64,000 nt of DNA from Nitrospirota bacterium (GCA_963737155.1 CAVTRN010000002.1:960001-1024000), one strand, 5' to 3'; counted from the first letter of the stretch, positions 3 through 61,479 are shown. Program-made: numbers and translations. The notes: generated from the sequence alone by a model not told the origin.

Positions 3-788
3 CGCATCGCTGGCATGGGGATCATGACAGGTCGCGCAGCCCCGCTGTGATTTAATGGGCGGGTGAATAAATTTGGCCGTTTTGAGCGCGTCCTGTATGT
101 CGGAATGGCACTGGTAGCAAAGCGCCGCTCCTTCCGCGGCGAGGAATCTTTTATAGGGGGATCCATGCGGATTATGACAGGCTTCGCAGCCCATGTCCAG
201 GGCTGGATGCTTCACGGCTTTTTTCTTGATTTCATCCTGCATATCGACATGGCACGTGAAGCAGAGGTCGGGGGTCGTTTTCACGACCAGGTGCTCGTTG
301 TCCGATTCATGGGGATTGTGGCAGTCTGTACAGTCGCCGGTGGCCGCCGGGCCGTGCACATACTTGAAGTCAACCTTATCGGGGTGGCAGGAAGTGCAAA
401 GATCCTTGAGAGGTTGAACCAGGAGCTTCGGCTGTGCCGAATCATGCGGGTTATGGCAGGTCGTGCACTGTCCGTCTTTTACCGGCGGATGGATGTGTTT
501 CTTGGTCCCGAACTTGTCATGGCATTGATAGCATAAAGCGGGGACCTCATCAACGAGTTTGAACGTTTTCACGTTTTTCTGCGGATGCGGTGTTTTGATT
601 GACTGGTGGCAGGTGTCGCAAGGCTCCGCCGCAGGATGGATATCTTTGGTCTTCAGCATGTCTGCATGGCACTTATTAGTCACGCAGCCCGGGGGCGCCG
701 CGGCGGTATCGCCCTGTGCGCGATGAAGATTCAGGGAAAACATAGTTATCAGAACAATCAGGCTTGAAACAAATAATGTTTTTTTCAT
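3..788 (-). CDS. Periplasmic multiheme cytochrome c (paired-CXXCH type), 3' end runs off the window
   Basis: Manual translation from ATG at 788: MKKTLFVSSLIVLITMFSLN (signal peptide), then CVTNKCH, CDTCH, CYQCH, CTTCHNPH, CTSCH, CTDCHNPH, CFTCH, CEACHNPH, CYQCH, CATCHDPH. No stop before the edge. Absent from the ORF track. Confidence 0.93.
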   Translation of the reverse strand, partial: MKKTLFVSSLIVLITMFSLNLHRAQGDTAAAPPGCVTNKCHADMLKTKDIHPAAEPCDTCHQSIKTPHPQKNVKTFKLVDEVPALCYQCHDKFGTKKHIHPPVKDGQCTTCHNPHDSAQPKLLVQPLKDLCTSCHPDKVDFKYVHGPAATGDCTDCHNPHESDNEHLVVKTTPDLCFTCHVDMQDEIKKKAVKHPALDMGCEACHNPHGSPYKRFLAAEGAALCYQCHSDIQDALKTAKFIHPPIKSQRGCATCHDPHASDA

Positions 789-1206: not shown

Positions 1207-1854
1207 TTAGAGAGAATATTTCTCCAATTTCTCCAGCACTTTTATATGCAGGAATTCAGACGGAACAATACGGAATTCCACAATATTGATGTTTCCTCCC
1301 TGGGGATTTGCCGGTTGAGCTGCACTCACAAAAAAGGCGGGATACCATGCCTTGAGTTCGGGTTCCCCCTGTGCCATAGCGTCCTGAATGAAATCAGTCA
1401 CCAATTGCGCCTTCATTCTTTCCACGGCAGTGGCTTCGTGCAGGTCGGTGGAGGGGTAGTGGGCTATGATCAGGATGAGACTTATATTAGACCTTGTATT
1501 AGGATCTTTCATAAGAGACAAGAATATATGTGCGAGTTTGTCCAAGTCGGCTTTCGCGGAGGCCTTTACCATGCCGTTCCCATCAAATAGCAGCGACCTA
1601 TCCAGGAGAATGGAGCTTGACCTGACTTTTATTCCTTGCATGGAGTCTGTCCCAAACTCCTTCTGGAAAGTCTGGTTGATATTCTTCGCGAATTCATTTC
1701 TCGGCTGGGAAAGGGCAAGCGCCGGTTCCAGAAACCGCTGTATCTTGATTGCCCGATAATAGGTGAGGGCGCTCAGTATTACCAGACCGACAAGCAGTAG
1801 ATTGAGAACGGGGCCCGCCGGCGGCGCGTATCTCCATAAGGATTTGTCGGTCAT
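1207..1854 (-). CDS. Single-pass membrane protein with degenerate OmpA/MotB-like C-terminal domain
   Basis: N-terminal TM (VLNLLLVGLVILSALTYY). ILLDRSLLFD..LDKLA..ILIIAHYP..KAQLV..IVEFRI follows the OmpA-C layout but lacks GHTD and RRVE. Confidence 0.6.
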   Translation of the reverse strand: MTDKSLWRYAPPAGPVLNLLLVGLVILSALTYYRAIKIQRFLEPALALSQPRNEFAKNINQTFQKEFGTDSMQGIKVRSSSILLDRSLLFDGNGMVKASAKADLDKLAHIFLSLMKDPNTRSNISLILIIAHYPSTDLHEATAVERMKAQLVTDFIQDAMAQGEPELKAWYPAFFVSAAQPANPQGGNINIVEFRIVPSEFLHIKVLEKLEKYSL

Positions 1855-2741
1855 GCCGCTGACTCCTCCAGCAGGTCAATTTTTTTTTCCGCTGTTTTGA
1901 AGTCTCCTTCGCTGATGCCGGCCGGCTGATGGATGGCCTTGTTCCTCAGTCCCAACAGGTCGCTGAACAATTCCTTTCTGAAATGGCTGATGCGGCGCTG
2001 CTGATCCATCTCTTTCAGACAATCGGACAATATCGGGAATGTTCGTCCGATTGTGCGGGAGGTGAATGCACGCAGACGATTTTCAATATGATAGCCGAGC
2101 AGGAGTGAAGCGACGACCTTTTCCCCGGATCTGTAATATTCCAATGCTTGTTCAACGGACACGTCGCCCTTGACAATACGGATGTTTTCCCGCGACTCCC
2201 GTTCGCCGGGTGCGAGCTGCTGTATTTTCTGATATACTTCCAGGCATTTATCGAGCATGTTCTGCTCAAGATAGGATTCCGCCAGGAGAAAGAGCTCTCG
2301 GATGCTGTCTCTGCCCTCGCGCTGCTGGAGGGCAAATGTATAGGCGCGCCGGATGGCCTCCGTCTTGTCGTCTTTCTTGTCGAGCACGTCGAAATGCCTG
2401 GCCCAGCGCTTGCCTTTCAGCACATTGTCCTTGGTGAAACGGAATAAGCGCTCCGAAACTTCGCTCTTGTCGAGCTTGCCGCTGATGACGATGATGTTCA
2501 GCGTAGGATGGGTATCAAAGAGCTCGGGGAGGGCATCAATTCCTTCCGTCATACGGTCAAACTCAATATCGAGCGTCATGAGATCGAACAACTGGGCTGT
2601 CAGCGCCTTGAGTGCGTCCCGAACGCTGACTGCCTCATGAAAACGCAGATCCGGTTCGTCCTTGCCGATGGCACGCTGGATTTCGAGCTTCAGGAGCTCC
2701 CGGTCCTCGAAGTCGTCATCGGCTAGCAATATCTTAAACAT
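1851..2741 (-). CDS. Response regulator: REC + TPR-like + HEPN-like C-terminal domain
   Basis: KILLADDD, TLDIEF (phospho-Asp), VISG; TPR-like LAESYLEQNMLDKCLEVYQKIQQLAP; C-terminal LRNKAIH (R-x4-H). Confidence 0.75.
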   Translation of the reverse strand: MFKILLADDDFEDRELLKLEIQRAIGKDEPDLRFHEAVSVRDALKALTAQLFDLMTLDIEFDRMTEGIDALPELFDTHPTLNIIVISGKLDKSEVSERLFRFTKDNVLKGKRWARHFDVLDKKDDKTEAIRRAYTFALQQREGRDSIRELFLLAESYLEQNMLDKCLEVYQKIQQLAPGERESRENIRIVKGDVSVEQALEYYRSGEKVVASLLLGYHIENRLRAFTSRTIGRTFPILSDCLKEMDQQRRISHFRKELFSDLLGLRNKAIHQPAGISEGDFKTAEKKIDLLEESAA

Positions 2742-3777
2742 CCGGTGCCTCCTCCACGAAGGGAAGATTGATTATAATCTCCGTGCCCGCTCCAGGAGCC
2801 GTATATTCCTTGCCGACCCTGATCCGTCCGGCATGAAGCCCGATGACGTATTTGGCGAAATAAAGTCCCTGGCCCCAGTTTTCACCGGACTGCTTCCCCT
2901 TGTAAAAACACTGGTCCGCCTGCTGCTCATCCATTCCCACTCCCTCGTCCCGGACCGAAACCGTAACGTAACGTCTGCTTCCGTCCCTGTCTATGGAGCA
3001 GGAAACAACAACACGCGCCCGGTGTTCGCCCGGCTTCCGGTACTTGATGGCGTTGTCGATGACATTTTCGAAGACAGTTTTCAGCAGCGGGGGGGCGGCG
3101 TAGATCATGGGAAGCGATAAGCTTTTTTGAATCGTTATCTCAGCAAGATCGCTGTATTGGTCCGTGAGATCGTCGAGCAGTACCCTGATGTCGGTTTTCT
3201 TGAAATCTATGAGGCCGGCCTCCCGCTCATCGGAAATTTTCTTGAAAATATCGATATCGGCGAATAGTTTTTCGAGGTTGCCATCGATGCGCTCCCTGGA
3301 ATCTGCAGGGAGGCCGGGGAGCAGATCGATCCGCCGTTTGATCCTTCCAAGATTGTTTTTGAACTCATGGCCGATGGTAGCTGATATATAGCGGATAAAT
3401 TCGTTTCGCCGCGCGATTTCCTGGTTTTTCAGGAGCAGGAACATGTTTTCCCTGGCTCTTCGCTGCTTTTGCTGGTAGATGACGGACAGGTACATGATGA
3501 ACGATGCAAAGGATACGACCATGGTTGTAAAGGCGTAATTGGATATCCTGACTGAAGCGTTCAGCTGGTCCTGCATGCTGGCGAGCCGCATGTCGATGGT
3601 CGCCTCCTGAGCGATGGGGGCCTTCCACGGCATCAGCAGCAACTCCAGCCGATCAAAGGGCGGGATGAACCGGTTTGTGTAGACCATGCCCAGAATCAGC
3701 CAGATTATGACCATCAGGGCCGTTAATGCCAGCAGTTTGATCCGGCCGGCGGGGTTTGATCGCCAATCGCTGTCCAT
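2734..3777 (-). CDS. Membrane sensor histidine kinase
   Basis: Two TM segments; H-box GHEFKNNL; N-box ENVIDNAIKY; G1 DEGVGM; G2-like WGQGL. Confidence 0.9.
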   Translation of the reverse strand: MDSDWRSNPAGRIKLLALTALMVIIWLILGMVYTNRFIPPFDRLELLLMPWKAPIAQEATIDMRLASMQDQLNASVRISNYAFTTMVVSFASFIMYLSVIYQQKQRRARENMFLLLKNQEIARRNEFIRYISATIGHEFKNNLGRIKRRIDLLPGLPADSRERIDGNLEKLFADIDIFKKISDEREAGLIDFKKTDIRVLLDDLTDQYSDLAEITIQKSLSLPMIYAAPPLLKTVFENVIDNAIKYRKPGEHRARVVVSCSIDRDGSRRYVTVSVRDEGVGMDEQQADQCFYKGKQSGENWGQGLYFAKYVIGLHAGRIRVGKEYTAPGAGTEIIINLPFVEEAPDV

Positions 3778-3902
3778 GGTTAAATGTATTACAACAATAA
3801 ATTTTTTACAATATAAAAAATAGATCGGTAACGATATAACGCAAAGAGAAGGGATGCCTGGCCAAAAAAGGGCTAGGGCGGGGATGTTCTGTTATGGATG
3901 AT

Positions 3903-5129
3903 TCACACATCTTTTTTTTCTCGAGTTTCCGAAAAGTATCCCACATCCGGGTGTTCCAGGAGGGGGAGTATCTGCGGTTTTTTTACCTCGCCGCGCAGTT
4001 CACGGAACAGCAGGTTGAAAAAGGTTCTGGTTATCTTTTCGTCGAACTGTGTGCCGCAGCACTTCATGACTTCATCGAAGGTTTTGTCGAGCCCCAACTT
4101 GTTACGGTAAGGCCGGTCCGTGGTCATGGCGTCGAAGGCATCGACCAGCGAAAGGATCTTGACTCCCTCGCTCAGTTCCGCTGCCCGGAGCGCATCGGGA
4201 TAGCCTTTTCCGTCAAGCCGCTCGTGATGGTGACGAGCGAAATCATCGATGTCCTTCCAGGGGAACTTGACTTTTGAAAGAATATCGTAGGATACCCGGG
4301 GATGTTTTCTTATTTCATTGACCTCTCCGTCTGTCAGTTTTTCGCCCTTTATTATGACTTTTGTGTCAACAACAATTTTACCGATATCATGGAGCAGACC
4401 AGCAATATATATTCCCTCCACATCTCTCTTTTTCCAGCCAAGTTCCTTCGCGATTGCAACAGCGTAACTGGCGACCCGGTAGGAATGGTCTTTGGTATAC
4501 CCGTCCTTGGCATCGATGGCGGCCGCGAATGCCTGAATAGTATCATGGTATATTCGCTGCATATTTTTATAGAGCCGCCTGTTTTCTTCTGCTTTCTTTG
4601 CCAGTTCTAAAAACAGATGCGCATTGTGAAGCGTTATAGCCATTTGGTGTGCGATGATCCGCAGGACATCTTTTTCTCCCTGCCGATAGGGCACGCCACC
4701 AAGCTTGCGGCCGAGCGTAAGAGCGCCGACGAATTCCTCTTTCGCGAAAAGAGGAAGAAACACCTTGGCCTTCAATTTGGCAAAGGCCTCCCGGTTATGC
4801 CTGAAAAACGCGGTGCTCGCCATGTCGCGGATCATGTGAGGATCATTCATGGTAAACTGTTTGATATGCTGCGTCTGGGCGCTCAGCCTGATTTTCTGAA
4901 GGTTGCGGCGGTCCCGTGTCCCTTTTCCGACAAGGAGGTCAAGTTCCTTTCGCACGGGGTGGTATACGAACAGGGCTGCCATGGGTACGGAAAGGGTTCC
5001 CGTAATGACATAGAGGGCGGCTTTCATTTTCGCTGAAAGGTCCTTCGAAGAGGTTGCCTCCTGCCCTAGATCAATCAAAGAGTCGATACTGAACATGAGG
5101 CGTTTCAGATGCAGGTTCCTTACGGCCAT
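3903..5129 (-). CDS. GAF + HD-GYP cyclic dinucleotide phosphodiesterase
   Basis: HSYRVA, LLHDIGK, HHERLDGKGYP, DAFDAMTTDRPYR; N-terminal GAF-like region. Confidence 0.92.
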   Translation of the reverse strand: MAVRNLHLKRLMFSIDSLIDLGQEATSSKDLSAKMKAALYVITGTLSVPMAALFVYHPVRKELDLLVGKGTRDRRNLQKIRLSAQTQHIKQFTMNDPHMIRDMASTAFFRHNREAFAKLKAKVFLPLFAKEEFVGALTLGRKLGGVPYRQGEKDVLRIIAHQMAITLHNAHLFLELAKKAEENRRLYKNMQRIYHDTIQAFAAAIDAKDGYTKDHSYRVASYAVAIAKELGWKKRDVEGIYIAGLLHDIGKIVVDTKVIIKGEKLTDGEVNEIRKHPRVSYDILSKVKFPWKDIDDFARHHHERLDGKGYPDALRAAELSEGVKILSLVDAFDAMTTDRPYRNKLGLDKTFDEVMKCCGTQFDEKITRTFFNLLFRELRGEVKKPQILPLLEHPDVGYFSETREKKDV

Positions 5130-5130
5130 A

Positions 5131-5484
5131 TCAACCTCTTTTGCTCAAATAGCTGAAAGCGTCGTTTTCGTCCTTGAAAACTTTTACATATTTCATCAAG
5201 CCCGCCATTTCGAAGATCTCCCGATGGTCTCTCTTCATATTGGTGAAGCAGAGCAAACTGTGGTAATCCAGGGTCTTCTGCACCATGCCTAGGAATATGG
5301 AAAGGCCGATGGTGTTGATGAACTGGACGCCGGAAAAGTTCACGATGAGCTTCCTGATGCCATTGCCCAGAAATTGCTCGCTTGCAAGCTCGAGGGTCTC
5401 TGCTCCGATGTTGTTGATGTATCCCTTCGGCTCCATGATGGCGATATCCTGCTCGGATTTTGATGATAAGGAAAAATTACTCAC
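5131..5484 (-). CDS. STAS-domain anti-sigma factor antagonist
   Basis: 117 aa; LIVNFSGVQFINTIGL corresponds to the D-S-S-G phospho-loop; IFEMAGL. Confidence 0.88.
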   Translation of the reverse strand: MSNFSLSSKSEQDIAIMEPKGYINNIGAETLELASEQFLGNGIRKLIVNFSGVQFINTIGLSIFLGMVQKTLDYHSLLCFTNMKRDHREIFEMAGLMKYVKVFKDENDAFSYLSKRG

Positions 5485-7150
5485 GGTTCGTCATATCCTC
5501 CCTGGGGATGGCTGCAGACTTCTCGATTTTTTTAATCAGAACTACCTTTGTGCCGAGAGCGGTCTTCTCAAACGTGACCTCATCGGCAAAGCGCTTTATC
5601 AGCTTGATGCCCCAGCCTCTCTTCGGCGCATTACCAGCGTTATGATCATGGACTGGTTCACCGGTTTCCTGAACGATGAATTCGTGCCCTGCGCTTTCCA
5701 CGGAAACCTCTATCCGGCCCCCGTCGACGGTGATGCCGACATAGACCTTTTTCCCGATGCCCTGCCCGTGCTCCATCGCGTTGATGCAGGCCTCGATGAC
5801 TGCAATCTGTAACTGGCCGATGGCGTCCTGGTCCAGGTGGAAATTCTTTCCTATCTGGTCAAGGCATTGGGCCGCGATGAGCTCCGCCTCCTTGACCATC
5901 GGAAGCGTCATGTCGAAGTGGACGAGGTGTTCCTTTTGCGGCAGAAGCCGTTCAAGGAAATCCTTTTCCAGGTCATAAGAGGGCTTTGCGAGGATCTCTC
6001 GCATGTAGAGGTTGTCGATTATATCCAGCAGTACCCGGTCATCCATCGCCCTGAACAGGCCGAATTCACCTCGCAGGAAACCAGCGAGGTACAGGGCGTT
6101 CACGACGGCACTTGCCTGACTGTCGGTCATTGAAAAGGATTTCGCGATTTGTTCGCACGAAAGGGCATCGGAGGAGTGATAGATTTTATAGAGCAGTGTA
6201 AGGGCTGTTTTTCTCCGGCTGAGATCGGGCAGATAGCCCTTCAGGACTGAAGACCAGAACAGGGAAAGGGCCCCGTCCATGACCTCCCTGATGTAGGCGC
6301 CCCAGAAGTCCTTCTCGTCGGGATTGTGCTTCGCGCAGGCCCTGGTGACAACGCGGCCCAGGTAAAAGGGGTTGCCCCCCAGATGGCGCAGAAGGAGAGG
6401 CGGCGCACTGATACCTTCCGATCCGTAATCCTGGAGTAGCGAAAGAATGCGTGACGAGGTTGCCTCCGGTCCGAGGGGCTGAATGGCCATGCGCTCAAGG
6501 TCATTCACGACGGAAATTTCCTGGAGCTCGGCCATGTTCCCCGCGATGACGTAGGGCGTTTTCCTTTGGGAAACCGGCTCCTCGAAAAGGGCGACCAGGC
6601 GCTGCTCGGGGAAGCCGTCGCGATGGAGACCCGCCAGCCGGTGAAAATCATCGATCAGAACGGCAACCGGCATTCCCGTAGACAGCGCCGAGCGGTGCGG
6701 AGCATTAAGCGCTATGCGGAGTCCGCCTACAGGATCAGCGGATCCCTGCCTGTACTCGTCGAGCAGATCTCTTGCCCAGTAAGCTTCCTGCTCTTCGGCA
6801 AGCACGGAAAGGTCCTCGATTGTTATTCCGTCGCGGTACAGCAGGGCCTGCTCCTTTTTTTGGAAAGCCAATCTCTGGCAGATGAACCGGGTCAGATAGC
6901 TTCTGGAAAAAACAGATGCGGATAGCAGCGCGGAGCTGGCCAAGTAGAAAAAAGGCGCCACCCGGTTCTGTTTCCAGAACAGCTGGCTGAAGAGATGCTT
7001 GAGAAGTTCCGTCTTTCCGATGCCCCGGGGGCCGGACAGAACAATGCTCTGAGCCAGGCCAGCATCCGCTTGGAGGGCCCGTTTGAGGAGGCTGGCCAGC
7101 TCATCCTGCCTTCCTGAAAAATCTTTTTCCTGGAGCGAACTGAACGACAT
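5477..7150 (-). CDS. P-loop ATPase + winged helix + RsbW-like anti-sigma kinase (HATPase_c_2) fusion
   Basis: Walker A GPRGIGKT; Walker B VLIDDF; wHTH-like LSCEQIAKSFSMTDSQASAVVNALYLAGFL; C-terminal EACINAMEHG and RGWGIKLIKRFADEV. Confidence 0.8.
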   Translation of the reverse strand: MSFSSLQEKDFSGRQDELASLLKRALQADAGLAQSIVLSGPRGIGKTELLKHLFSQLFWKQNRVAPFFYLASSALLSASVFSRSYLTRFICQRLAFQKKEQALLYRDGITIEDLSVLAEEQEAYWARDLLDEYRQGSADPVGGLRIALNAPHRSALSTGMPVAVLIDDFHRLAGLHRDGFPEQRLVALFEEPVSQRKTPYVIAGNMAELQEISVVNDLERMAIQPLGPEATSSRILSLLQDYGSEGISAPPLLLRHLGGNPFYLGRVVTRACAKHNPDEKDFWGAYIREVMDGALSLFWSSVLKGYLPDLSRRKTALTLLYKIYHSSDALSCEQIAKSFSMTDSQASAVVNALYLAGFLRGEFGLFRAMDDRVLLDIIDNLYMREILAKPSYDLEKDFLERLLPQKEHLVHFDMTLPMVKEAELIAAQCLDQIGKNFHLDQDAIGQLQIAVIEACINAMEHGQGIGKKVYVGITVDGGRIEVSVESAGHEFIVQETGEPVHDHNAGNAPKRGWGIKLIKRFADEVTFEKTALGTKVVLIKKIEKSAAIPREDMTNRE

Positions 7151-7151
7151 A

Positions 7152-9179
7152 TTAGGAGAAGACCTCTATCCGGTTTTTGCCGCTGTTCTTGGCTCGATAC
7201 AGCGCCTTGTCGACATTTTCAAGAAGGAGTTCCACCGTTTTCCCATGCTCTGGATAACAGACAACGCCGATGCTGGCCGTGAGGGAAAGCGGTTCTGCCG
7301 CGGATTCATCCCGGGGCAGCAGCACATTCTTTATTACATTGGTCCTCAAGCGCTCCGCGATATCGGTTGCAAGCGGCTCACGGGTTTCCGGCAGAATGAT
7401 CATGAATTCATCTCCTCCGTACCGGGCCACGATATCCATTGATCGGACGGTATTGAACAAGGTATCCGCAATGTTTTTCAGTATCTTATCGCCGAAGAGA
7501 TGTCCCAAAGAGTCATTGCAGGCTTTGAAGCCGTCCAGGTCCACCATGAGCAGGCTGAGATGGTGACCAGTGCGTATGGAACGGGCTAATTCGACTTTCA
7601 GCCTTTCGTAGAGGTACCGCCGGTTCAGGAGGCCTGTCAGGGGATCCGTGATCGTCAGTTTCTTGAGCTCCTCCCTTTGGTTGAAGAAGACGTTCCGCTC
7701 CATGACTATCGCCGCATGGGTCGCAAAGGACTGAATGAGCTTCATATCCTCGTCATCGAAAACTTCACCCGTCACCTTGTCCGACAGATTGAGCACGCCG
7801 ATGATGCGGTCATCGATTTTAAGCGGCACGCTGATGAATGATGGCGTTTTATAGTGCTGCCTGTTCTTTTGATTGGTTCTTGGATCTTTTTCTACATTCC
7901 TGACCAGGATAGCTTCTCCGTTTTCAGCGACTCTTCCGGCGATTCCCTCACCGCAGTTGATCCTGAGCTTTTGAGCAATGTCGTCGCCGAGTCCTTTTTT
8001 CGCCTCAAGGAGAAGCACATTGGTTTCGTGATCGAGGAGCATCAGGGAACCCTGTTCGGCCTTCAGCAGTTCGGCGGACTTCTCCAGGATTGTCTGGAGC
8101 AGCGTCCCGTAATTATGAATCGGAGATATTGTTTTGGTTAGATCCGAAATCGTGACAAACCAGTCAAACTTTTTATTCAGGGCTTGATGCAAATGATAAT
8201 TCTCGATGAAAAGCGCAGTTTGTTTGCAGAACCCGGAAATGATCTGTATATCGTTTTCCGTGAGAGGCTGGTCGCTGACACTGAGGATGCCGGTCACGCT
8301 GTTATTAATCAAAATGGGGAAATAAAAGCCGAACCTCGTCTCCTCTTTCACCATAATGCTGTGTTCGCCGGCAGACTCGGGAAAATGAACGAACGGTTTG
8401 CCACCCTGGAGTACCTTGATAACAGGGTTCTGCGCGTTGATATTCGGCACCTTCATCTGAACTCCGCTTTTGGACAGGCCGTACAGACTGGTATAGGCGT
8501 TCAGTTTTTTATCAAACGAATAAACGGTGATCCTGTCGATGTTTAACAGCGTTGAAAGGTTGTAGAGCATGTCCTGGAAACGGTTTTCCGGCTGCTGTGC
8601 CGCGGAAGTTCCCCAGCGCGAGAAAACGCTCTTGAGACTCTCGACCTGTCTTCTCAGAATTGTGATTTCCTGCATGTTGTTAAGAAGACGATTGACAGTG
8701 CCGGCCACGAATCGGCATGTTTTCCATGCCTGCTGCGAGGTCGTGTAGGTGAGCGGTATTTTTAGAGTGACCATGTCTATGCCGCAAGAGCTCGCCAAGT
8801 CCATGCAGTTTCGGAAATCGTCATAAGTGGGAAACGATCCCTGCCCTTGGATCACGGCTTTTTCCCCCATATATTCGATCGGGAGGACAAAACTCATGAT
8901 TTTTGCATAACACTGGTAGACCTCGGGCTTTCCCGTTGAGAGGGCGTTCATGATATAGGACTGGCAGGTTGAGCTACATTGGGATTCGAAACGGGGTGAA
9001 GAGAGGTGGAAATTCTGGCAAAGGGGAGCGTCACCGAGGGAAACGAAGATCGGTTTCCCTGTTTGAGAATAGATGCTCAGAGAAAAACCGAGGCTTTCAG
9101 AAAGGGATATGAAATGTTCCCGCCATGTCTCAGTCCTGAGGATGTCCTGTAAGTGCTCCCCTGTAATAATCTCCAGCAC
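7152..9179 (-). CDS. Diguanylate cyclase with PocR-like and GAF sensor domains
   Basis: DPLTGLLNRR, RYGGDEF, I-site RSMD; Cys pattern of PocR (LC..C...C..YQCYA); two GAF-like regions. Confidence 0.92.
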   Translation of the reverse strand: MLEIITGEHLQDILRTETWREHFISLSESLGFSLSIYSQTGKPIFVSLGDAPLCQNFHLSSPRFESQCSSTCQSYIMNALSTGKPEVYQCYAKIMSFVLPIEYMGEKAVIQGQGSFPTYDDFRNCMDLASSCGIDMVTLKIPLTYTTSQQAWKTCRFVAGTVNRLLNNMQEITILRRQVESLKSVFSRWGTSAAQQPENRFQDMLYNLSTLLNIDRITVYSFDKKLNAYTSLYGLSKSGVQMKVPNINAQNPVIKVLQGGKPFVHFPESAGEHSIMVKEETRFGFYFPILINNSVTGILSVSDQPLTENDIQIISGFCKQTALFIENYHLHQALNKKFDWFVTISDLTKTISPIHNYGTLLQTILEKSAELLKAEQGSLMLLDHETNVLLLEAKKGLGDDIAQKLRINCGEGIAGRVAENGEAILVRNVEKDPRTNQKNRQHYKTPSFISVPLKIDDRIIGVLNLSDKVTGEVFDDEDMKLIQSFATHAAIVMERNVFFNQREELKKLTITDPLTGLLNRRYLYERLKVELARSIRTGHHLSLLMVDLDGFKACNDSLGHLFGDKILKNIADTLFNTVRSMDIVARYGGDEFMIILPETREPLATDIAERLRTNVIKNVLLPRDESAAEPLSLTASIGVVCYPEHGKTVELLLENVDKALYRAKNSGKNRIEVFS

Positions 9180-15488: not shown

Positions 15489-16658
15489 ATGACAATAAAT
15501 AGCGCCATATTCGAGAGCCGCACGGATTTCAATGAAGATATTCAGCCCACGCCTAAGGATCTTGCGGCATTTCTTGCGAATCCTGGCAAGGCAGTCGGCG
15601 AGGATCCGCGTATCAACGATCTGGATGTTTACCGAAAGTTTCTCAAAGAGGCCGATGAATATAAGCAACACCAGGTATCAGCGGCGCCGGACATCCAGCA
15701 GCGGATATTGTTCGGCGTGCTCGACCATACAAAATTCATCAACCCTGTACTCCTGTCGGAAGTGGAGATGTATGCCTATCAAGTGCACAGACTCGAGTCC
15801 CTCGATTTTAAGAACCCTGCGACATTCATCAAGGCGGCGGAACATGAAATGACCCGCCTCAGCATAAAGAAAATCAACGATGTGATGAGGATGGAAAGAC
15901 TCCGGCAAATGATCGCGGAACGGAAAAAGGTTCTCGCAATACTCAAGAAACAGTGGTTGGAAATAACCCCTGAACTGCGCCGTATCGCGCTGTATGTGAG
16001 GCAAAATCTGGTCAGGCTTGAAAAACTCTGCGAAACGTCAGTCGTCATTCTCGCGGAAGCCGGCATCGGGCGAACAAAGGAAAAGCAGCTGATTGAAAAT
16101 GTTAATAACTTTTTCAGGGAGCTTCTGAAAAGAGCCCTGCACCAGGGCAAGATTACCAGGCAGAACCTGGAAAAAGCCAGGGATGAAGTGGAGATGGTAA
16201 CAACGGAGTTGTCAGTACTCATCACCGAGGATGGTGACGCTCTTACAAAATGGTATGAAACGATACATGATCATGTAAAAGCGTCGTCGAAGGACATTGC
16301 CGGCTTGCTGGCCGACATCGAAAGCAAAAAGAGTGGGACTGTTCTGGAGAACCTCAGGCTTTTCAAGCAGCTTGAGCATGTCCTCGTGTCGCTTTTGTCG
16401 GGTTGTCGCCTTGAAATAAAACCGGCCAGGATTGGCCAGGGTACGCCGCACGACAGCATTGTCAATGCAAAAAGAATGGAGATGCTCGACTATCTCTTTG
16501 AACAGGTGCATAAGGAGCGCAGGACCCGGTCGGACCGCAGGGGCCGGCCGAATCGGAGGAAAGCAAATGATTCGAACTATCAGGGGCCTGAAAGGAGAAG
16601 CGGTCGGGACAGACGAAGCGTAAAAAGCCGCAGAAGCTCGATGGCTGCATCTCTATGA
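15489..16658 (+). CDS. Hypothetical helical/coiled-coil protein with C-terminal (E/D)RR repeats
   Basis: 389-aa ORF ending ERRTRSDRR..NRR..YQGPERRSGRDRR; overlaps next gene by 4 nt. Confidence 0.75.
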   Translation: MTINSAIFESRTDFNEDIQPTPKDLAAFLANPGKAVGEDPRINDLDVYRKFLKEADEYKQHQVSAAPDIQQRILFGVLDHTKFINPVLLSEVEMYAYQVHRLESLDFKNPATFIKAAEHEMTRLSIKKINDVMRMERLRQMIAERKKVLAILKKQWLEITPELRRIALYVRQNLVRLEKLCETSVVILAEAGIGRTKEKQLIENVNNFFRELLKRALHQGKITRQNLEKARDEVEMVTTELSVLITEDGDALTKWYETIHDHVKASSKDIAGLLADIESKKSGTVLENLRLFKQLEHVLVSLLSGCRLEIKPARIGQGTPHDSIVNAKRMEMLDYLFEQVHKERRTRSDRRGRPNRRKANDSNYQGPERRSGRDRRSVKSRRSSMAASL

Positions 16659-18865
16659 AAAGATACTGTTACTGTCTGTTTCTGGCGATATTTCTTTGTT
16701 CATGCGGCGGGCGTTTCCCGTTGTTGCCAAGAGAGCGAGAGCAGAATCCTTTTTCCTATTGTGACTTGCTCAATGTGCCTTCGCAACCCTATCCTATCCT
16801 GAAACCGAAAACCTATCTCGGCATATACCTGGCTTCCCAGAAAGTTGAAAAAGCCCCCCCGCAATGCAAGGAAAACTATTTTGTGCAGGTTGGCGGGATC
16901 ATAAACGGTTCTCCGGCGGCAAAGTCCGGTCTTATGAACGAGGATGTCATCCTGTCACTGAATAATAATCCCATCTGCGGTGACGCGGTTCATGTCGCGC
17001 AATTATTTAAAAAAATGATCGAGCGGGAACAAATCGGATCTCTCGCCATGCTTGAAATTCTTCGCGGCGATCGTACGCTATCGATCCCCGTCACACTGGA
17101 GGAGCTGCCCACCCATGAGCAGAGGGAGGCGAGTCATCCTGAAATCGGGACATGCCCAACCCAAACCTCTTTGCTGGACAATGCCCTGGTCGCGCAAGGA
17201 GCACTTCCCGCATTGAAAGTTGTTTACGACGGCTTGTATGAGCGGTCGGACATCGTTCACAACCCCGGATCGGCACTGGAAAATAAATCGCATCCGCTCC
17301 AGCTGGAAGAAGTGACCTACCTGTTGCGGCACCCCCTGCAGGCTGGAGAAGTCGCGAAAGAATTGTCTCACAGCATCAGCGAGCCTTTCGAAAACGATGA
17401 CTGGAATCCCGCTGAGGGCGTGCGTCGCGCCGCGGCACTTGTCGATGTGAGCCTCCCGTCTCCGGAAAAACCGGAGGAAATCACGTTTCCCGCGCTCCTT
17501 CATGTTATGGAAGAAACAAAGAAGAGAATTGACGCCGCTCTGTCCAATCTGACGCCGGATGAAAAAAAGCTGTTGGAGGAAAAGGCCCTCAATCCCTCAG
17601 ACGACAGCCAATGGAACAGGATACTGGAAGTCTCCCTGAAGGTGGATCGCACCGCGCTGTTCCAAGCCTTTACTCCTTTCCTCGCTTTTCTCACACGCGA
17701 CAATCTGTCGCTTTTAAAAGCGGATGTGATAAAGCGTTTTGGCGGAAACAAAGGACCCATTCTCTATGAAGCCATGAGCCCCATCGGCAAGGTGATAGTC
17801 GGCGGTAAGGGGCCGAACGTATATACCGACGATGCTGCACTTATTCTCGATCTTGGCGGTGACGACCTCTATCTCAACAATGCAGGCGGGACAAGGCCCG
17901 GCATGCCACTCGCTTTAGTCATAGACTGGGGAGGAAACAACCGCTACATAAGCAAGGAAAATTTCTCCCAGGGTGCCGGCCTCTTGGGCGGCGGCTTTCT
18001 GATCGATCTTGGCGGCAACGCCACCTTCATTTCACGGGATGGCAGCCAGGGCGCGGGCTTCTGGGGGATCGGTCTCCTTTATCACGGCGATGGAACAGGA
18101 GTATTCAGCTCCCGGGAATTCAGCCAGGGTACGGGACAGATGGGTATCGGAATTCTTGTGAGCAGAAAAGGGGATGACCAATATCTTTGCTCGTACGGGG
18201 GGCAGGGGCTGGGACTGTTTGGAGGGGCGGGAATCCTGTTTGATGAAGCAGGTAACGATTTTTATCAGCTGGGAGGCCTGGAACCGGATTTTCGTGATCC
18301 CAAGATGTCTACGCAAAGCATGGGCCAGGGGTTCGGCTTGGGAGAAAGACCGGATAAAGACAAGAACGGGGTGCCAGGCGGCGTTGGTATGCTGATCAAT
18401 GGCGGTGGAAATGACACCTATATTGCCGACTATTTTGCCCAGGGAGCATCCTATTATTATGGTTTGGGCATCCTGGACGACAGGACGGGCAATGACCAGT
18501 ATATATCGGGACGCTATAGCCAGGGCGCGGGGATCCATTCCTCTATCGGCGTTCTCATTGACCGTTCGGGTAATAATTTCTATTATAACTCCTTCGGGGT
18601 GGGACAGGGGATGGGACACGATTACGGCGTCGGATTTTTCGAGGATGACGGCGGAGAGGACCATTATCAGGGAGGGACTCTGGTGCAGGGTGCGGCAACA
18701 AATGGGGGTCTCGGAATATTTATTGATTTGGCGGGAAAAGAGGAACATTCCTTCGTCAGCCAAGGGCAGGGATATGTTGAAGGGGAAAAGGGGATCGGCA
18801 TTTATATTAGCGGGGGAAGCCTTGAACAAGCACCTGCCATCAAGATCGGGACAGGGAAGGAATGA
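16655..18865 (+). CDS. Lipoprotein with PDZ domain and Gly-rich (GxDxY / QGxG) repeats
   Basis: Lipobox FLCSC; PDZ motif GSPAAKSGLMNEDVILSLN; repeated D-xxGND-xY and SQGAG units. Confidence 0.8.
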   Translation: MKRYCYCLFLAIFLCSCGGRFPLLPREREQNPFSYCDLLNVPSQPYPILKPKTYLGIYLASQKVEKAPPQCKENYFVQVGGIINGSPAAKSGLMNEDVILSLNNNPICGDAVHVAQLFKKMIEREQIGSLAMLEILRGDRTLSIPVTLEELPTHEQREASHPEIGTCPTQTSLLDNALVAQGALPALKVVYDGLYERSDIVHNPGSALENKSHPLQLEEVTYLLRHPLQAGEVAKELSHSISEPFENDDWNPAEGVRRAAALVDVSLPSPEKPEEITFPALLHVMEETKKRIDAALSNLTPDEKKLLEEKALNPSDDSQWNRILEVSLKVDRTALFQAFTPFLAFLTRDNLSLLKADVIKRFGGNKGPILYEAMSPIGKVIVGGKGPNVYTDDAALILDLGGDDLYLNNAGGTRPGMPLALVIDWGGNNRYISKENFSQGAGLLGGGFLIDLGGNATFISRDGSQGAGFWGIGLLYHGDGTGVFSSREFSQGTGQMGIGILVSRKGDDQYLCSYGGQGLGLFGGAGILFDEAGNDFYQLGGLEPDFRDPKMSTQSMGQGFGLGERPDKDKNGVPGGVGMLINGGGNDTYIADYFAQGASYYYGLGILDDRTGNDQYISGRYSQGAGIHSSIGVLIDRSGNNFYYNSFGVGQGMGHDYGVGFFEDDGGEDHYQGGTLVQGAATNGGLGIFIDLAGKEEHSFVSQGQGYVEGEKGIGIYISGGSLEQAPAIKIGTGKE

Positions 18866-26540: not shown

Positions 26541-26795
26541 ATGTCCACTATAACGAAAAAAGGACAGGTAACGATCCCCAAGCCATTCAGGGAAAAACTA
26601 CACATCCGGGAGGGCGATTGCCTCGACTTCGAGGTCAAAGACGGAGTGCTAATTTTACAGAAAAAGGCGCGTACGTCGATACTCGACCTGGGTGGGATTG
26701 CGAAGGGGAGAAATGTTGGGACCGGGAATGAGCGGGAATATGCGAAAAAAATGGTTGCGCGAAGAATTGCGAAAGAAGGATTGAAGAATGGTTGA
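26541..26795 (+). CDS. AbrB/MazE-family antitoxin
   Basis: ITKKGQVTIPKPFREKLHIREGD. Confidence 0.92.
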   Translation: MSTITKKGQVTIPKPFREKLHIREGDCLDFEVKDGVLILQKKARTSILDLGGIAKGRNVGTGNEREYAKKMVARRIAKEGLKNG

Positions 26796-27198
26796 TTCCG
26801 TATTCGTTGATACCAATGTTTTTCTACGTTTCTTCGTAAGGGACGTGGAGTCGCTATACGAAAAGGCGTATGACCTGTTTGAAAAGGCGGAGAGCGGGAA
26901 GTTGCGGCTTGAGACAAGTGAACTTGTCATCGCGGAAATCGTCAGGGTGTTGGAATCACTTTACGGATTTACGAGAAATGAGATTTCAAGCATTCTCAAC
27001 ACACTGCTTGCCGCGAAGAACCTTAAAGTCGCCGGTCACGCGAGGGTCAGGGAGGCCGTTGGGCTGTATTTCACAGGTAATATGGATTTTATAGACGCCT
27101 ATAATATCGCATATATGAAAGCAAAGGGATACGGAAGGATAGCGACCTTCGATTACAAACATTATAATAAAGCGGAAGGCATAGCTTCCGTTTGGTAA
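26788..27198 (+). CDS. PIN-domain (VapC-like) toxin
   Basis: VFVDTNVF, VIAEI, DFIDA, IATFD; overlaps the antitoxin gene. Confidence 0.92.
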   Translation: MVDSVFVDTNVFLRFFVRDVESLYEKAYDLFEKAESGKLRLETSELVIAEIVRVLESLYGFTRNEISSILNTLLAAKNLKVAGHARVREAVGLYFTGNMDFIDAYNIAYMKAKGYGRIATFDYKHYNKAEGIASVW

Positions 27199-41366: not shown

Positions 41367-41443
<77 letters not shown>

Positions 41444-41455
41444 TTCCAATTGATT

Positions 41456-41532
41456 GCGCCTGTAGCTCAGGTGGATAGAGCAACAGCCTTCTAAGCTGTG
41501 GGTCAGGGGTTCGAATCCCTTCAGGCGCGCCA
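41456..41532 (+). tRNA. tRNA-Arg(TCT)
   Basis: ACAGC-CTTCTAA-GCTGT; GTTCGAATC; CCA. Confidence 0.96.
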
Positions 41533-41623
41533 AAAAATAAATGGAAAAATTTGGAAATTTAAGGTATCATGGGCGCTCCGAAATCGTGAATTTTTATTTT
41601 TGAAGTTGAAATTAGTTTTTCAT

Positions 41624-41700
41624 GGTGGGCGTAGCTCAGCTGGTAGAGCACAAGGTTGTGGCCCTTGTGGCCGCGGGTTCAAGCCCCGTCGCTCACCCCA
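41624..41700 (+). tRNA. tRNA-His(GTG)
   Basis: CAAGG-TTGTGGC-CCTTG; encoded G-1; CCA. Confidence 0.96.
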
Positions 41701-41713
41701 CTTTTCTCATATA

Positions 41714-41743
41714 GAGACGGCCGATCCGGCCGTCTCACTTTTT
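41714..41743 (+). terminator. Intrinsic terminator-like hairpin inside the tRNA cluster
   Basis: GAGACGGCCG/CGGCCGTCTC followed by ACTTTTT. Confidence 0.6.
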
Positions 41744-41757
41744 CTGGAGTATGTACT

Positions 41758-41834
41758 GCGCCCGTAGCTCAGCTGGATAGAGCGTTGGCCTCCGAAGCCA
41801 AAGGTCGTGGGTTCGACTCCCGCCGGGCGCACCA
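41758..41834 (+). tRNA. tRNA-Arg(CCG)
   Basis: TTGGC-CTCCGAA-GCCAA; CCA. Confidence 0.96.
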
Positions 41835-41935
41835 AATGTATTTCCCTTCGCAATTTTGCGGGAATGAATCAGAGTTAGGGGCTTTGAGCTGTATCCAAAC
41901 GGTAACTCGGCACTCTGTACTGAAAACTTACATGC

Positions 41936-42012
<77 letters not shown>

Positions 42013-42160
42013 AGAAAATAAATTGTGAAAAATATGGATGGGAACAGGCATTAAACTGAAATAATCGTAGCTAAGTGGACATTTTCTTGTTGCATCCTCT
42101 CGTCCATATAAGTATAATGCAGCCGTTTTTGAACCATGAACTTTCGTAAAGTAGTTGTAC

Positions 42161-42236
<76 letters not shown>

Positions 42237-59496: not shown

Positions 59497-61445
59497 CCCA
59501 TCTTCTACAGTTGTAGCCGAGAAAAGGGCTATTTGCGTGAGTGAAGTTGTTTGATTTCGCAGAGTTACAAAAAGTTTTTTGGAAAAAGATCAAAATGTAG
59601 TGCCACGTTTATATATAGATTGCTTGCAATTAATAATTATTATGATATATTTATGGTGCTATGTTCTTCCGGGTAAAACGCTCCGAATCGCGAGCATATC
59701 TCCAGATCGTTAATAACCGCCGCGACAAGGGCAAGGTAAAGCAGGAAGTCGTCGCCACGCTTGGACGACTCGATGCGCTCAAGGAAACAGGGGCATTGGA
59801 CAGCCTGCTGCGGTCAGGGCTCAAGTTCTCTGAACAGATCGCTGTTATCGACGCGCATAAGCAGGGCGAAGCAATTGAGACGGATTCCAGGCGTATCGGC
59901 CTTCCGATGATATTCGGCCGGTTATGGAAAGAGCTGGGAATACAGGCGGTGCTTGCGACATTGGCCAAGGAGCGCAAGCATCAATTTTCCATCGAGCGGG
60001 CGATTTATCTTACGGTGCTGCACCGCTTGAGCGTATCGGGTTCAGATCGTGCCGCTGAACAATGGTGCCTTGGCTACAGGATAGAAGGGGCCGACGGAAT
60101 CGATTTACATCATTTATACCGGGCTATGGCATGGCTCGGCGAACCCCTTGCCGATGCTGATCAGCACGGGGCCACCGGATTTTCTCCCCGCTGCACCAAG
60201 GATGTGATTGAGGAAGAGCTGTTCCGACGCAGACGGGATTTATTCACCGATCTACGGCTGGTCTTTTTCGACACCACGAGCATTTACTTTGAAGGAGAAG
60301 GCGGCGAGGATATCGGTGCATATGGCCATTCCAAGGACCACCGGCCCGATCTCAAACAGATGGTGGTCGGTGCAATCATCGATCATCACGGCAAGCCCCT
60401 TTGCTGTGAGTTATGGCCCGGCAACACAACCGATGTCAAGACGCTCGTGCCGATTATAGACCGGCTGAGGCTCCGCTTCGGCATCAATCAGGCGTGTGTA
60501 GTGGCCGACCGAGGGATGATCAGCGAAAAGACTCTGGCCGATTTGCAGGAGCGGAAGATCGATTACATTCTGGGCGCGCGGATGCGGCGGCAAAAGGAAG
60601 TGAGCGAAGAGGTTTTAAGCCGCGGGGGTAAATACGAAGAGGTATACCCCAAAAGCAAGGAGAGTAAGGCCCCTTCCCCGCTCAAGGTGAAGAACGTCAT
60701 GGTAGGCGAGCGCCGCTACATCGTGTGTGTCAATGAGGACCAGCGGAAAGAAGACGCCGCTGATAGAGAAGCCATCATCGCATCCCTTCGAGAGAAGCTG
60801 AAGCAGGGAGGCAAGAGCCTGGTTGGCAACAAAGGGTATCGTAAATATGTGAAGAGCGCAGGCAGTGCTTTTGCCATTGATGAAGAGAAAATTCAACAGG
60901 AATCACGATATGACGGTAAGTGGGTCCTCTCGACCTCGATGCCCATGCTTGCGCGCGAGGTTGCTCTCGCGTACAAGGAGCTGTGGATGGTGGAGCAGAT
61001 CTTCAGGAGCACTAAAACGGTGCTGACGACGCGGCCGATTTATCATAAATGCGATGAGACGATTCGCGGTCACGTCTTCTGCAGCTTTCTTGCGCTTGTT
61101 CTTATGAAGGAATTACAGGAGCGATTGGATAGCCGCAATGAGGAGAAGCTTGAGTGGGGCCAGATGCTCCGAGATCTTGAGGAATTGAAGCAGATCACAA
61201 TTACAAGCGACAACAAGGAAATGATTTTACGGACCGAATTAAAAGGCGATACGGGAAAGGTGTTTCAGGCTGCGGGAGTGGCGATTCCGCCAAAGGTCTT
61301 GATACCGCAGAAGGGAAAGGATGCATGACGCTCATCAGCATGATCGAATTGGAACGAGAGGGGAAAGTGTAGTGCCACGCCACCTTTCGACAGCCGTATC
61401 ATATTGTTTAAGCGAAGTTATTTTTTGGCAGGTGTAGAAGATGGG
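59497..61445 (+). mobile_element. Complete IS1634-family insertion sequence
   Basis: Perfect 13-bp terminal IRs CCCATCTTCTACA/TGTAGAAGATGGG; 5-bp TSD TATGA at 59492-59496 and 61446-61450. Confidence 0.92.
59661..61328 (+). CDS. IS1634-family DDE transposase
   Basis: FFDTTSIYFEG, GHSKDHRPDLKQ, VADRGM, YKELWMVEQIFR, IRGHVFCSFLA. Confidence 0.93.
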   Translation: MFFRVKRSESRAYLQIVNNRRDKGKVKQEVVATLGRLDALKETGALDSLLRSGLKFSEQIAVIDAHKQGEAIETDSRRIGLPMIFGRLWKELGIQAVLATLAKERKHQFSIERAIYLTVLHRLSVSGSDRAAEQWCLGYRIEGADGIDLHHLYRAMAWLGEPLADADQHGATGFSPRCTKDVIEEELFRRRRDLFTDLRLVFFDTTSIYFEGEGGEDIGAYGHSKDHRPDLKQMVVGAIIDHHGKPLCCELWPGNTTDVKTLVPIIDRLRLRFGINQACVVADRGMISEKTLADLQERKIDYILGARMRRQKEVSEEVLSRGGKYEEVYPKSKESKAPSPLKVKNVMVGERRYIVCVNEDQRKEDAADREAIIASLREKLKQGGKSLVGNKGYRKYVKSAGSAFAIDEEKIQQESRYDGKWVLSTSMPMLAREVALAYKELWMVEQIFRSTKTVLTTRPIYHKCDETIRGHVFCSFLALVLMKELQERLDSRNEEKLEWGQMLRDLEELKQITITSDNKEMILRTELKGDTGKVFQAAGVAIPPKVLIPQKGKDA

Positions 61446-61479
61446 TATGATACTTCTTTCAACAAGGAGGTCTCACCCA

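Follow-up and report, generated by a model that had tools for sequence, protein, structure and literature searches.

Can a response regulator that carries no DNA-binding domain, and ends instead in a HEPN-like domain, direct the output of a two-component system to RNA? The question is raised by three adjoining genes in a 64,000-nt stretch of a Nitrospirota bacterium genome (GCA_963737155.1 CAVTRN010000002.1:960001-1024000), called the window hereafter, with all positions counted from its first nucleotide. According to the list of open reading frames (ORFs), these genes encode a sensor histidine kinase (HK; 347 amino acids, positions 2734-3777), a response regulator composed of a REC domain, a TPR-like linker and a HEPN-like domain (RR; 296 amino acids, 1851-2741) and a single-pass membrane protein (P3; 215 amino acids, 1207-1854), all of them on the minus strand, as are the parts of these proteins described below. 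We put at roughly one in two the probability that they constitute a self-contained module in which a phosphorelay gates a HEPN ribonuclease (RNase), with the output acting on RNA and not on DNA.

To begin with, the C-terminal domain of RR (residues 196-296, positions 1854-2156) was supported as a HEPN-like domain of the DUF4145 kind by sequence profiles, motifs and helix order, and not by a fold match. It harboured the sequence R266-N267-K-A-I-H271 at the end of the helix 253-271 (1929-1946), which corresponds to the Rx4-6H catalytic motif of HEPN RNases and matches exactly the R-x4-H that an earlier note on this DNA had placed there, and E220-N-R-L-R224 within the helix 208-231 (2070-2084), corresponding to the second HEPN motif, E-x3-[KR]. 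An R-x4-H spacing is trivial in a single sequence, and it was raised above chance here by its invariance, as R266, N267 and H271 were each found in all 35 aligned relatives, with the pattern RN[KRQ][AF][IV]H in 35 of 35; moreover, E220 was kept in 34 and K/R224 in 33 of them. The conservation of R and H among homologues had been named by the earlier note as a point on which its proposal could fail, and it was complete. Such invariance is informative because the C-terminal domain was the least conserved part of RR, with a mean pairwise identity of 61% (minimum 45%) compared to 79% for the REC core and 72% for the linker. In the AlphaFold model of RR, with a mean predicted local distance difference test score (pLDDT) of 78.9 and values of 85-95 over most of residues 211-290, this domain was all-helical (helices 196-204, 208-231, 238-247, 253-271 and 278-292) and showed the expected order, with the helix 238-247 as an insert between core helices 2 and 3. 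A survey of HEPN domains (PMC3710099) places the Rx4-6H motif where helix 3 ends, gives the residue after the motif R as usually N, D or H, reports an upstream E-x3-[KR] in many families and locates an insert often between helices 2 and 3; the motif position, the N after R, the E-x3-[KR] and the helix 2-3 insert of RR agree with that description.

Sequence profiles were then compared for a total of 30 C-terminal domains, one being the window copy, 28 coming from translated loci and one from a database fragment. The four Pfam families matched most commonly (E ≤ 10) were all HEPN families: DUF4145 (23 of 30 domains, best E 2.9e-5), HEPN_Swt1 (18 of 30, best E 2.3e-4), HepT-like (15 of 30, best E 7.2e-4) and HEPN_RiboL-PSP (6 of 30, best E 8.3e-4), followed in frequency by HTH_60 (five domains), while each remaining family was matched by four domains at most. 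The curated DUF4145 cut-off of 23.1 bits was passed by the orthologues of three loci, L027 (24.5), L032 (24.4) and L029 (23.5), in line with the HEPN-like output domain proposed by the earlier note. At E ≤ 0.01, DUF4145 was matched by 11 of the 29 orthologue domains, some of the alignments spanning positions 3-83 of the 88 in the profile, and at least one HEPN-family match was found for 14 of them. Two other searches stayed within the family or returned nothing useful: a profile of the C-terminal domain run against 5.8 billion proteins of 53-177 amino acids gave 17 matches, all of them fragments of the same family, with no bridge to other HEPN families, and phmmer searches of the PDB with two orthologue C-terminal domains yielded no match for one and a chance match ('fuzzy homolog', E 0.64) for the other.

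The N-terminal part of RR was found to be an intact receiver. The REC domain (residues 1-126, positions 2364-2741) was identified by Pfam (Response_reg, 34.5 bits for a cut-off of 30.2), by its conserved residues and by Foldseek, where the whole RR model gave many receiver-domain matches, PorX chains among them; the model showed the beta-alpha alternation of this domain. D8 and D9 were present in 30 of 30 sequences, D10 in 28 of 30, the phospho-acceptor D58 (2568-2570) and S87 in 30 of 30 and K122 in 31 of 31, the roles of which we take, by analogy, to be those of their counterparts in CheY. Neither Pfam nor NCBIfam returned a DNA-binding family for RR, so that the intact REC domain without a DNA-binding domain, as first described for this protein, was confirmed. 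In particular, a basic insert in the alpha4-beta5 region of REC (residues 92-126, positions 2364-2468) was near-invariant, with a mean pairwise identity of 96% for these 35 residues over 30 orthologues, despite a pLDDT below 50 for residues 103-114, and it looks like a binding surface for a highly conserved partner, possibly RNA or HK. Between REC and the HEPN-like domain lay a TPR-like helical linker (residues 127-195, positions 2157-2363), modelled as four helices (127-141, 145-159, 163-176 and 181-190), with a TPR_2 match at residues 149-179 that was below the Pfam cut-off (E 2e-4); the best PDB sequence matches of RR were designed consensus TPR proteins (E 9.7e-11).

The kinase encoded upstream was likewise intact in sequence. 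Its HATPase_c domain scored 58.3 bits in Pfam (cut-off 26.4, E 1.2e-15), and an alignment of 28 sequences showed A6, H137, N238/N242, D277/G279/G281 and G302/G304 to be invariant; the H-box (His137, 3367-3369) and the N, G1 and G2 boxes are therefore intact. Pfam HisKA was not matched by HK; the H-box was nonetheless visible in the sequence. A hydropathy scan revealed two hydrophobic segments in HK, taken as transmembrane (TM) segments TM1 (residues ~14-34, positions 3676-3738) and TM2 (residues ~82-101, positions 3475-3534), one segment in P3 and none in RR, in line with the 2-TM kinase and the single-pass third protein that had been described before. The periplasmic loop between the two HK segments was short (~45 residues), with an invariant P50-W51.

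The three genes were closely joined in the window and stood side by side across the family. In the window, the HK stop and the RR start overlapped by 8 nt (junction ATGTTTAA) and the RR stop and the P3 start by 4 nt (junction ATGA), as the ORF coordinates and the junctions bore out for the overlaps claimed by the earlier note, and a GGAGGAG ribosome-binding site was found 8-10 nt 5′ of both downstream starts. Upstream of HK, a 125-nt AT-rich intergenic spacer (3778-3902, minus strand) presumably holds the operon promoter, and a consensus scan of it gave no strong sigma-70 match. In 185,579 species, each scanned through one genome, 40 loci were found in 38 assemblies, all of them labelled Nitrospirota, Thermodesulfovibrionales, Candidatus Sulfobium or similar, except for one on a 6.6-kb contig binned as Betaproteobacteria, the RR of which nested among Nitrospirota sequences in a tree of 30 rows longer than 280 amino acids, five fragments having been left out. 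By tblastn, HK stood directly 5′ of RR in all 34 loci with room for it, the other six starting no more than 470 nt from RR or inside it, and P3 stood directly 3′ of RR in 39 of 40 loci, the lone miss ending 323 nt past RR. Hence the three-gene synteny, another point on which the earlier note had staked its proposal, was found in each of the 40 loci as far as its contig reached. The module was single-copy in most genomes, and two assemblies had two copies on different contigs (L016/L019 and L027/L028). The L027 and L028 copies were nearly identical, and L016 and L019 were separated between the two halves of the RR tree, suggesting that they are true paralogues or come from mixed bins. Besides, one locus (L038:6001-6887) showed an RR match over 887 nt with 70% contiguous coverage and an apparent frameshift, being either a pseudogene or an assembly error.

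Sequence divergence among the loci was also compared. The mean pairwise identity was 73% for RR, 68% for HK and 51% for P3, and the pairwise identities of the three proteins were correlated (r 0.83-0.87). The ratio of non-synonymous to synonymous substitution rates (dN/dS), estimated by the Nei-Gojobori method after dropping the pairs with dS ≥ 3 or a failed estimate (211 of 435 pairs kept for RR, 172 of 378 for HK and 229 of 406 for P3), was 0.10 for the whole RR, 0.19 for its HEPN part, 0.014 for its residues 92-126, 0.10 for HK and 0.22 for P3, these values being rough with a median dS of 1.3-1.8, near saturation. The correlated identities and the low dN/dS indicate that HK, RR and P3 are one vertically inherited unit under purifying selection. 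In database searches, RR retrieved 652 proteins at E ≤ 0.001, which among the matches listed were 79-100% identical and 293-296 amino acids long, those with a name being called Nitrospirota response regulator or CheY-like protein, and P3 retrieved 353 proteins, all of them hypothetical. When residues 130-296 of RR were searched against 1.84 billion representatives at 50% identity, one full-length cluster and fragments were obtained, the rest being TPR proteins; a match of 2031 amino acids (P0256) was dismissed as a TPR-repeat match.

The third protein, P3, is a degenerate MotB/OmpA-like protein according to its AlphaFold model (pLDDT 83.7). A single TM segment (residues 13-35, positions 1750-1818), seen both in the hydropathy scan and in the model, continued up to residue 67 as a long juxtamembrane helix, after which came a degenerate OmpA-like domain of the order beta-alpha-beta-alpha-beta-beta (residues 68-198, positions 1261-1653) and a conserved C-terminal helix. 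At the top of the Foldseek matches in the PDB stood ZorB chains from three Zorya complexes (8vvi_A at E 1.9e-9, the other two at 2.9e-6 and 8.0e-6), and the matches also included 8vvn and 8qyd_F. Further matches comprised PA0833, a Desulfovibrio MotB-like protein, YfiB (6iki_B, E 1.3e-4), TagL, PomB and OmpA-like domains, with MotB at 2.1e-4, MotS at 2.3e-4 and the MotB/ZorB-type range extending down to ~6e-4. The OmpA-like label given to P3 in the earlier note was therefore upheld by predicted structure; by sequence it was not, as none of 29 P3 members matched Pfam OmpA (at E ≤ 10) or MotB_plug. Scans of P3 with Pfam, NCBIfam and PADLOC gave nothing meaningful, and its best match among PDB sequences was not significant (E 0.057).

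Two features set P3 apart from the stators that it resembles. Stator subunits conserve a protonatable Asp in their TM helix, and no Asp or Glu was found within or beside the P3 segment (residues 10-36) in any of the 29 sequences. Moreover, a MotA/ZorA/ExbB-type partner gene was absent from the conserved module, from the 50 window ORFs scanned and from the 12 recurring families of flanking genes. Going by these data and its model, P3 is thus no ordinary stator subunit, and the lack of both a proton-carrying Asp and a MotA/ZorA partner makes an anchor or a sensor more likely than a motor stator. OmpA-like domains bind peptidoglycan through an Asp/Arg pair, in which R146 of P3 is the Arg equivalent; the second helix of the domain kept R146 and Q150 in 27 of 29 sequences each, and no conserved Asp was found in the beta2-alpha2 loop among the 29. 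Conservation was higher in the TM segment (77%), the juxtamembrane helix (68%) and the C-terminal helix (72%) compared to the OmpA-like core (40%), a pattern that fits a protein-protein contact in the membrane.

Taken as a pathway, the conserved HK-RR-P3 operon suggests signalling with RNA cleavage as its output. In the mechanism that we infer, from the nature of the signal and the HK-P3 contact to the phosphorylation gating, the RNase activity and its RNA targets, HK would sense an envelope or cell-wall cue, probably together with P3 and in contact with it in the membrane, the OmpA-like domain of P3 being periplasmic, and would autophosphorylate on His137. The phosphate would then pass to Asp58 of RR, and the phosphorylated REC domain would alter the oligomeric state of RR or the packing of its domains, whereby the HEPN site (R266, N267, H271 and E220) would be assembled or exposed and RNA cleaved without a metal. 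The His137 and Asp58 steps are proposed because they follow established two-component biochemistry and the residues are intact, and the RNase step because of the HEPN motifs and what the survey reports of them (PMC3710099). As for the contact between HK and P3, the conservation of the operon and the way in which P3 is conserved made it moderately likely beforehand. When residues 1-135 of HK were co-folded with P3, the median interaction prediction score from aligned errors (ipSAE) was 0.41, the best of three controls reaching 0.00, with the runs agreeing in at least 63% of contacts and a partner pLDDT of at least 71. In calibration, the mark was reached by 58 of 80 solved complexes and by 2 of 110 mismatched pairs; with scores of 0.60 or lower, 7 of the 80 solved complexes passed and both passing mismatches lay in the same range, so that the co-fold lends the predicted contact weak support.

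Several observations weigh against an RNA-cleaving module. The C-terminal domain of the window itself remained below every Pfam cut-off (HepT-like E 0.1, HEPN_Swt1 E 0.11) and had no DUF4145 row at E ≤ 10, and at E ≤ 0.01 no HEPN match at all was found for 15 of the 29 orthologue domains. The top match of a PDB profile search with this domain, the HepT toxin 6m6w_B, was not significant alone (E 0.96), its alignment covering the LRNxAxH stretch and setting LRNIAVH of HepT against the RR motif at that same E-value. In the ESM Atlas (two look-ups), the three nearest named clusters bore DUF4145, with HEPN_RnaseLS clusters lower in the list, all with scores of 0.89 or less that make them leads only. 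Fold searches with the whole model were dominated by REC matches, and against BFVD, in particular, only receiver domains were matched and the HEPN part did not surface. The invariance of the motif was sampled over limited divergence (domain identity down to 45%) within a narrow family, having one full-length cluster at 50% identity, and some HEPN domains are non-catalytic, RNA binding or cleavage by RR being a prediction from sequence. Finally, according to the co-folding tool, a pass in this weak class is false more often than true, except where the contact was likely to begin with.

Turning to other explanations, P3 could be a co-transcribed envelope protein outside the signalling path, either a target of its regulation or an unrelated structural protein, with HK sensing alone. 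The weak co-fold result and the faster evolution of P3 (51% identity vs. 68% and 73%) speak for such a bystander; against it, P3 follows RR directly in 39 of 40 loci and, in the window, has a ribosome-binding site of its own and a start that overlaps with the stop codon of RR. Furthermore, the conservation of P3 is concentrated in the TM segment and juxtamembrane helix and not in the periplasmic fold, and the periplasmic loop of HK, at only ~45 residues, argues against sensing by HK alone, for which reasons we regard this explanation as unlikely, if a serious one.

A distinctly unlikely account is that the HEPN-like domain of RR does not cleave, RR being a phosphorylation-controlled adaptor that binds RNA or protein, for example by sequestering a transcript or a partner with its TPR-like and HEPN parts, and comparable to RssB and other adaptor or single-domain regulators. 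TPR-like segments are typically protein-binding modules, the near-invariant basic insert in REC (96%) resembles a binding surface and the profile scores to catalytic HEPN families were weak, all of which would suit an adaptor; inactive HEPN domains acting in binding are likewise reported in the survey (PMC3710099). According to that same survey, however, these inactive domains have lost the conserved charged residues (PMC3710099), while in RR the R, N and H were kept in 35 of 35 relatives and the E in 34 of 35, inside the fastest-evolving domain of the protein. This retention of the charged residues favours cleavage by RR over binding.

The gene context was considered with regard to the roles first proposed for the trio (stress, dormancy or anti-phage function), of which the last showed the poorest fit. 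Flanking genes varied between loci, with recurring neighbours including radical SAM proteins (11 loci), TPR proteins, shikimate kinase, a P-type ATPase, RNase II, a LigB-type dioxygenase and a glycosyltransferase, and no integrase, restriction enzyme or other defence marker was found by Pfam among the 12 recurring flank families, four of which had no Pfam match. In PADLOC-DB 2.0.0, no family was matched by HK or P3, and RR had two weak matches confined to REC residues 3-61 (E 0.0017 and 0.0045). Thus an anti-phage abortive infection system of Zorya-like logic, in which a ZorB-like P3 would detect the perturbation of envelope or peptidoglycan at phage entry and the phosphorelay would release a toxic HEPN RNase, is quite improbable, for all the ZorB matches of P3 (E 1.9e-9 to 8e-6), the frequency of HEPN RNases as defence effectors in the survey (PMC3710099) and the two metagenome-assembled genomes with two copies (L016/L019 and L027/L028), given these PADLOC results, the lack of a ZorA/MotA-like gene in the module or the 50 window ORFs scanned, the housekeeping nature of the identified neighbours and the strong purifying selection with correlated distances (r 0.83-0.87), which fit vertical inheritance inside a single clade and not a mobile, fast-turnover defence gene.

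Other features of the surroundings were recorded as well. Directly upstream of the module (3903-9179, minus strand) were genes for a GAF + HD-GYP protein, a STAS protein, a 557-amino-acid protein combining AAA_16 with HATPase_c_2 (an ATPase joined to a kinase of the anti-sigma type) and a PocR-GAF-GGDEF cyclase; this cyclic di-GMP and partner-switching set is held to lie outside the conserved module because it was common to only one of the 40 loci (L026). On the other side, 418 nt without a convincing ORF (789-1206) separated P3 from a multihaem cytochrome c gene with five paired CXXCH stretches that runs off the window start (3-788, minus strand), and one promoter-like site was seen at 1137-1109. 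In three loci (L003, L007 and L039), apparently close relatives and maybe not independent, an RNase II gene (RNB domain) was located 3′ of P3, a noteworthy neighbour for a putative RNase regulator. Rfam found only six tRNAs in the whole window, distant from the locus and none of them within 789-1206, the six genes forming a tight tandem cluster (41367-42233, plus strand). Also on the plus strand were two overlapping ORFs of 389 and 736 amino acids without a Pfam match at E ≤ 1e-8, which followed the cytochrome bd oxidase genes (15489-18865), a PIN-domain gene that is probably the toxin of a toxin-antitoxin pair (26788-27198) and a pair of neighbouring DDE transposase genes close to the end of the window (59661-62997). 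Scans of the window for promoters (five sites vs. 2.9 in the shuffled expectation) and terminators (five vs. 3.6) gave numbers not above expectation.

Each part of the module is of a known kind, be it the histidine kinase, the receiver, the DUF4145-like HEPN domain or the MotB/ZorB-like fold, and it is their combination that is unusual. The domain of RR is closest to DUF4145 (PF13643) and HepT, sharing with them the best profile matches, the Rx4H with its polar residue, the E-x3-[KR], the helix order and the helix 2-3 insert. However, HepT, of the HEPN-MNT toxin-antitoxin pairs, is controlled by the MNT antitoxin and not by a kinase, and the window copy was below the Pfam cut-off for DUF4145. 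Table 1 of the survey, as far as the available part goes, has DUF4145 fused to restriction endonucleases, helicases, Sel1, zinc ribbon, TM, TIR and others, with no receiver domain, receivers being mentioned only for a TM domain fused to either HEPN or a receiver (PMC3710099). A description of a REC-HEPN or REC-DUF4145 regulator was not found in the full-text literature searched, which lacked most subscription journals. Among response regulators with an enzyme or an RNA-directed output in place of a transcription factor, ANTAR proteins, PorX (REC with a PglZ phosphodiesterase), CheB and RssB are comparable to RR, but none of them is known to carry a HEPN domain, and ANTAR proteins, which act in RNA antitermination, bind RNA and are not known to cleave it.

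Likeness of logic was found further afield. In Ire1 and RNase L, a HEPN/KEN RNase is switched by a phosphorylation- or ligand-driven change of oligomeric state (see also PMC3710099), and the trigger of Ire1 is a membrane stress sensor; unlike the trio, these are eukaryotic proteins with the sensor, a Ser/Thr kinase or pseudokinase and the RNase in one polypeptide, while the trio would use a His-Asp phosphorelay over two proteins plus a third membrane protein, with no sequence relation other than through the HEPN superfamily. In type III CRISPR systems, Csm6/Csx1 likewise combine an N-terminal alpha/beta sensor domain (CARF in Csm6) with a C-terminal HEPN domain, and Csm6 appeared in the Foldseek matches of the whole RR (T. 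thermophilus 8jbb_B, E 4.3e-4; 5fsh_B, E 1.2e-3) with TM-scores of only 0.16-0.23, so that the likeness is an architectural analogy and does not indicate homology; moreover, Csm6 responds to cyclic oligoadenylate, where RR would respond to Asp phosphorylation, and is tied to CRISPR loci. As regards P3, the N-terminal single TM segment, the long helix and the C-terminal OmpA-like domain are shared with ZorB and with MotB, PomB and MotS, from which it differs by the missing TM Asp (0 of 29), the missing MotA/ZorA partner and the absence of other Zorya genes in PADLOC. The YfiBNR system of Pseudomonas also uses an OmpA-like protein, YfiB, as the envelope-state sensor of a signalling module, although YfiB is an outer-membrane lipoprotein acting on a diguanylate cyclase through YfiR, and P3 is predicted to be an inner-membrane single-pass protein encoded next to a histidine kinase.

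The outputs of characterised two-component systems are nearly all transcription, second messengers, chemotaxis or proteolysis, and an RNA-cleaving regulator, if true, would extend the His-Asp repertoire to a post-transcriptional output. A simple two-protein system for the gating of HEPN RNases by an upstream domain, a question common to Ire1, RNase L, Csm6 and Cas13, would be gained as well, and the idea is directly testable, with the RNase activity being predicted from motifs and profiles. The absence of the stator Asp and of a MotA-type channel from P3 suggests, furthermore, that the MotB/ZorB fold may have a second use in sensing the envelope on behalf of a kinase. More tentatively, and somewhat short of even odds, RR may represent a new class of two-component output, a phosphorylation-gated HEPN endoribonuclease driven by HK and a peptidoglycan-facing MotB/ZorB-like partner, which would be a bacterial counterpart of the Ire1 logic built from His-Asp parts and would reshape the transcriptome or induce dormancy upon envelope perturbation. 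The HK-RR-P3 family is restricted to a single narrow and little-studied group of Nitrospirota, and its strong conservation and single copy in most genomes indicate that the module probably belongs to the core physiology of these poorly studied anaerobic bacteria.

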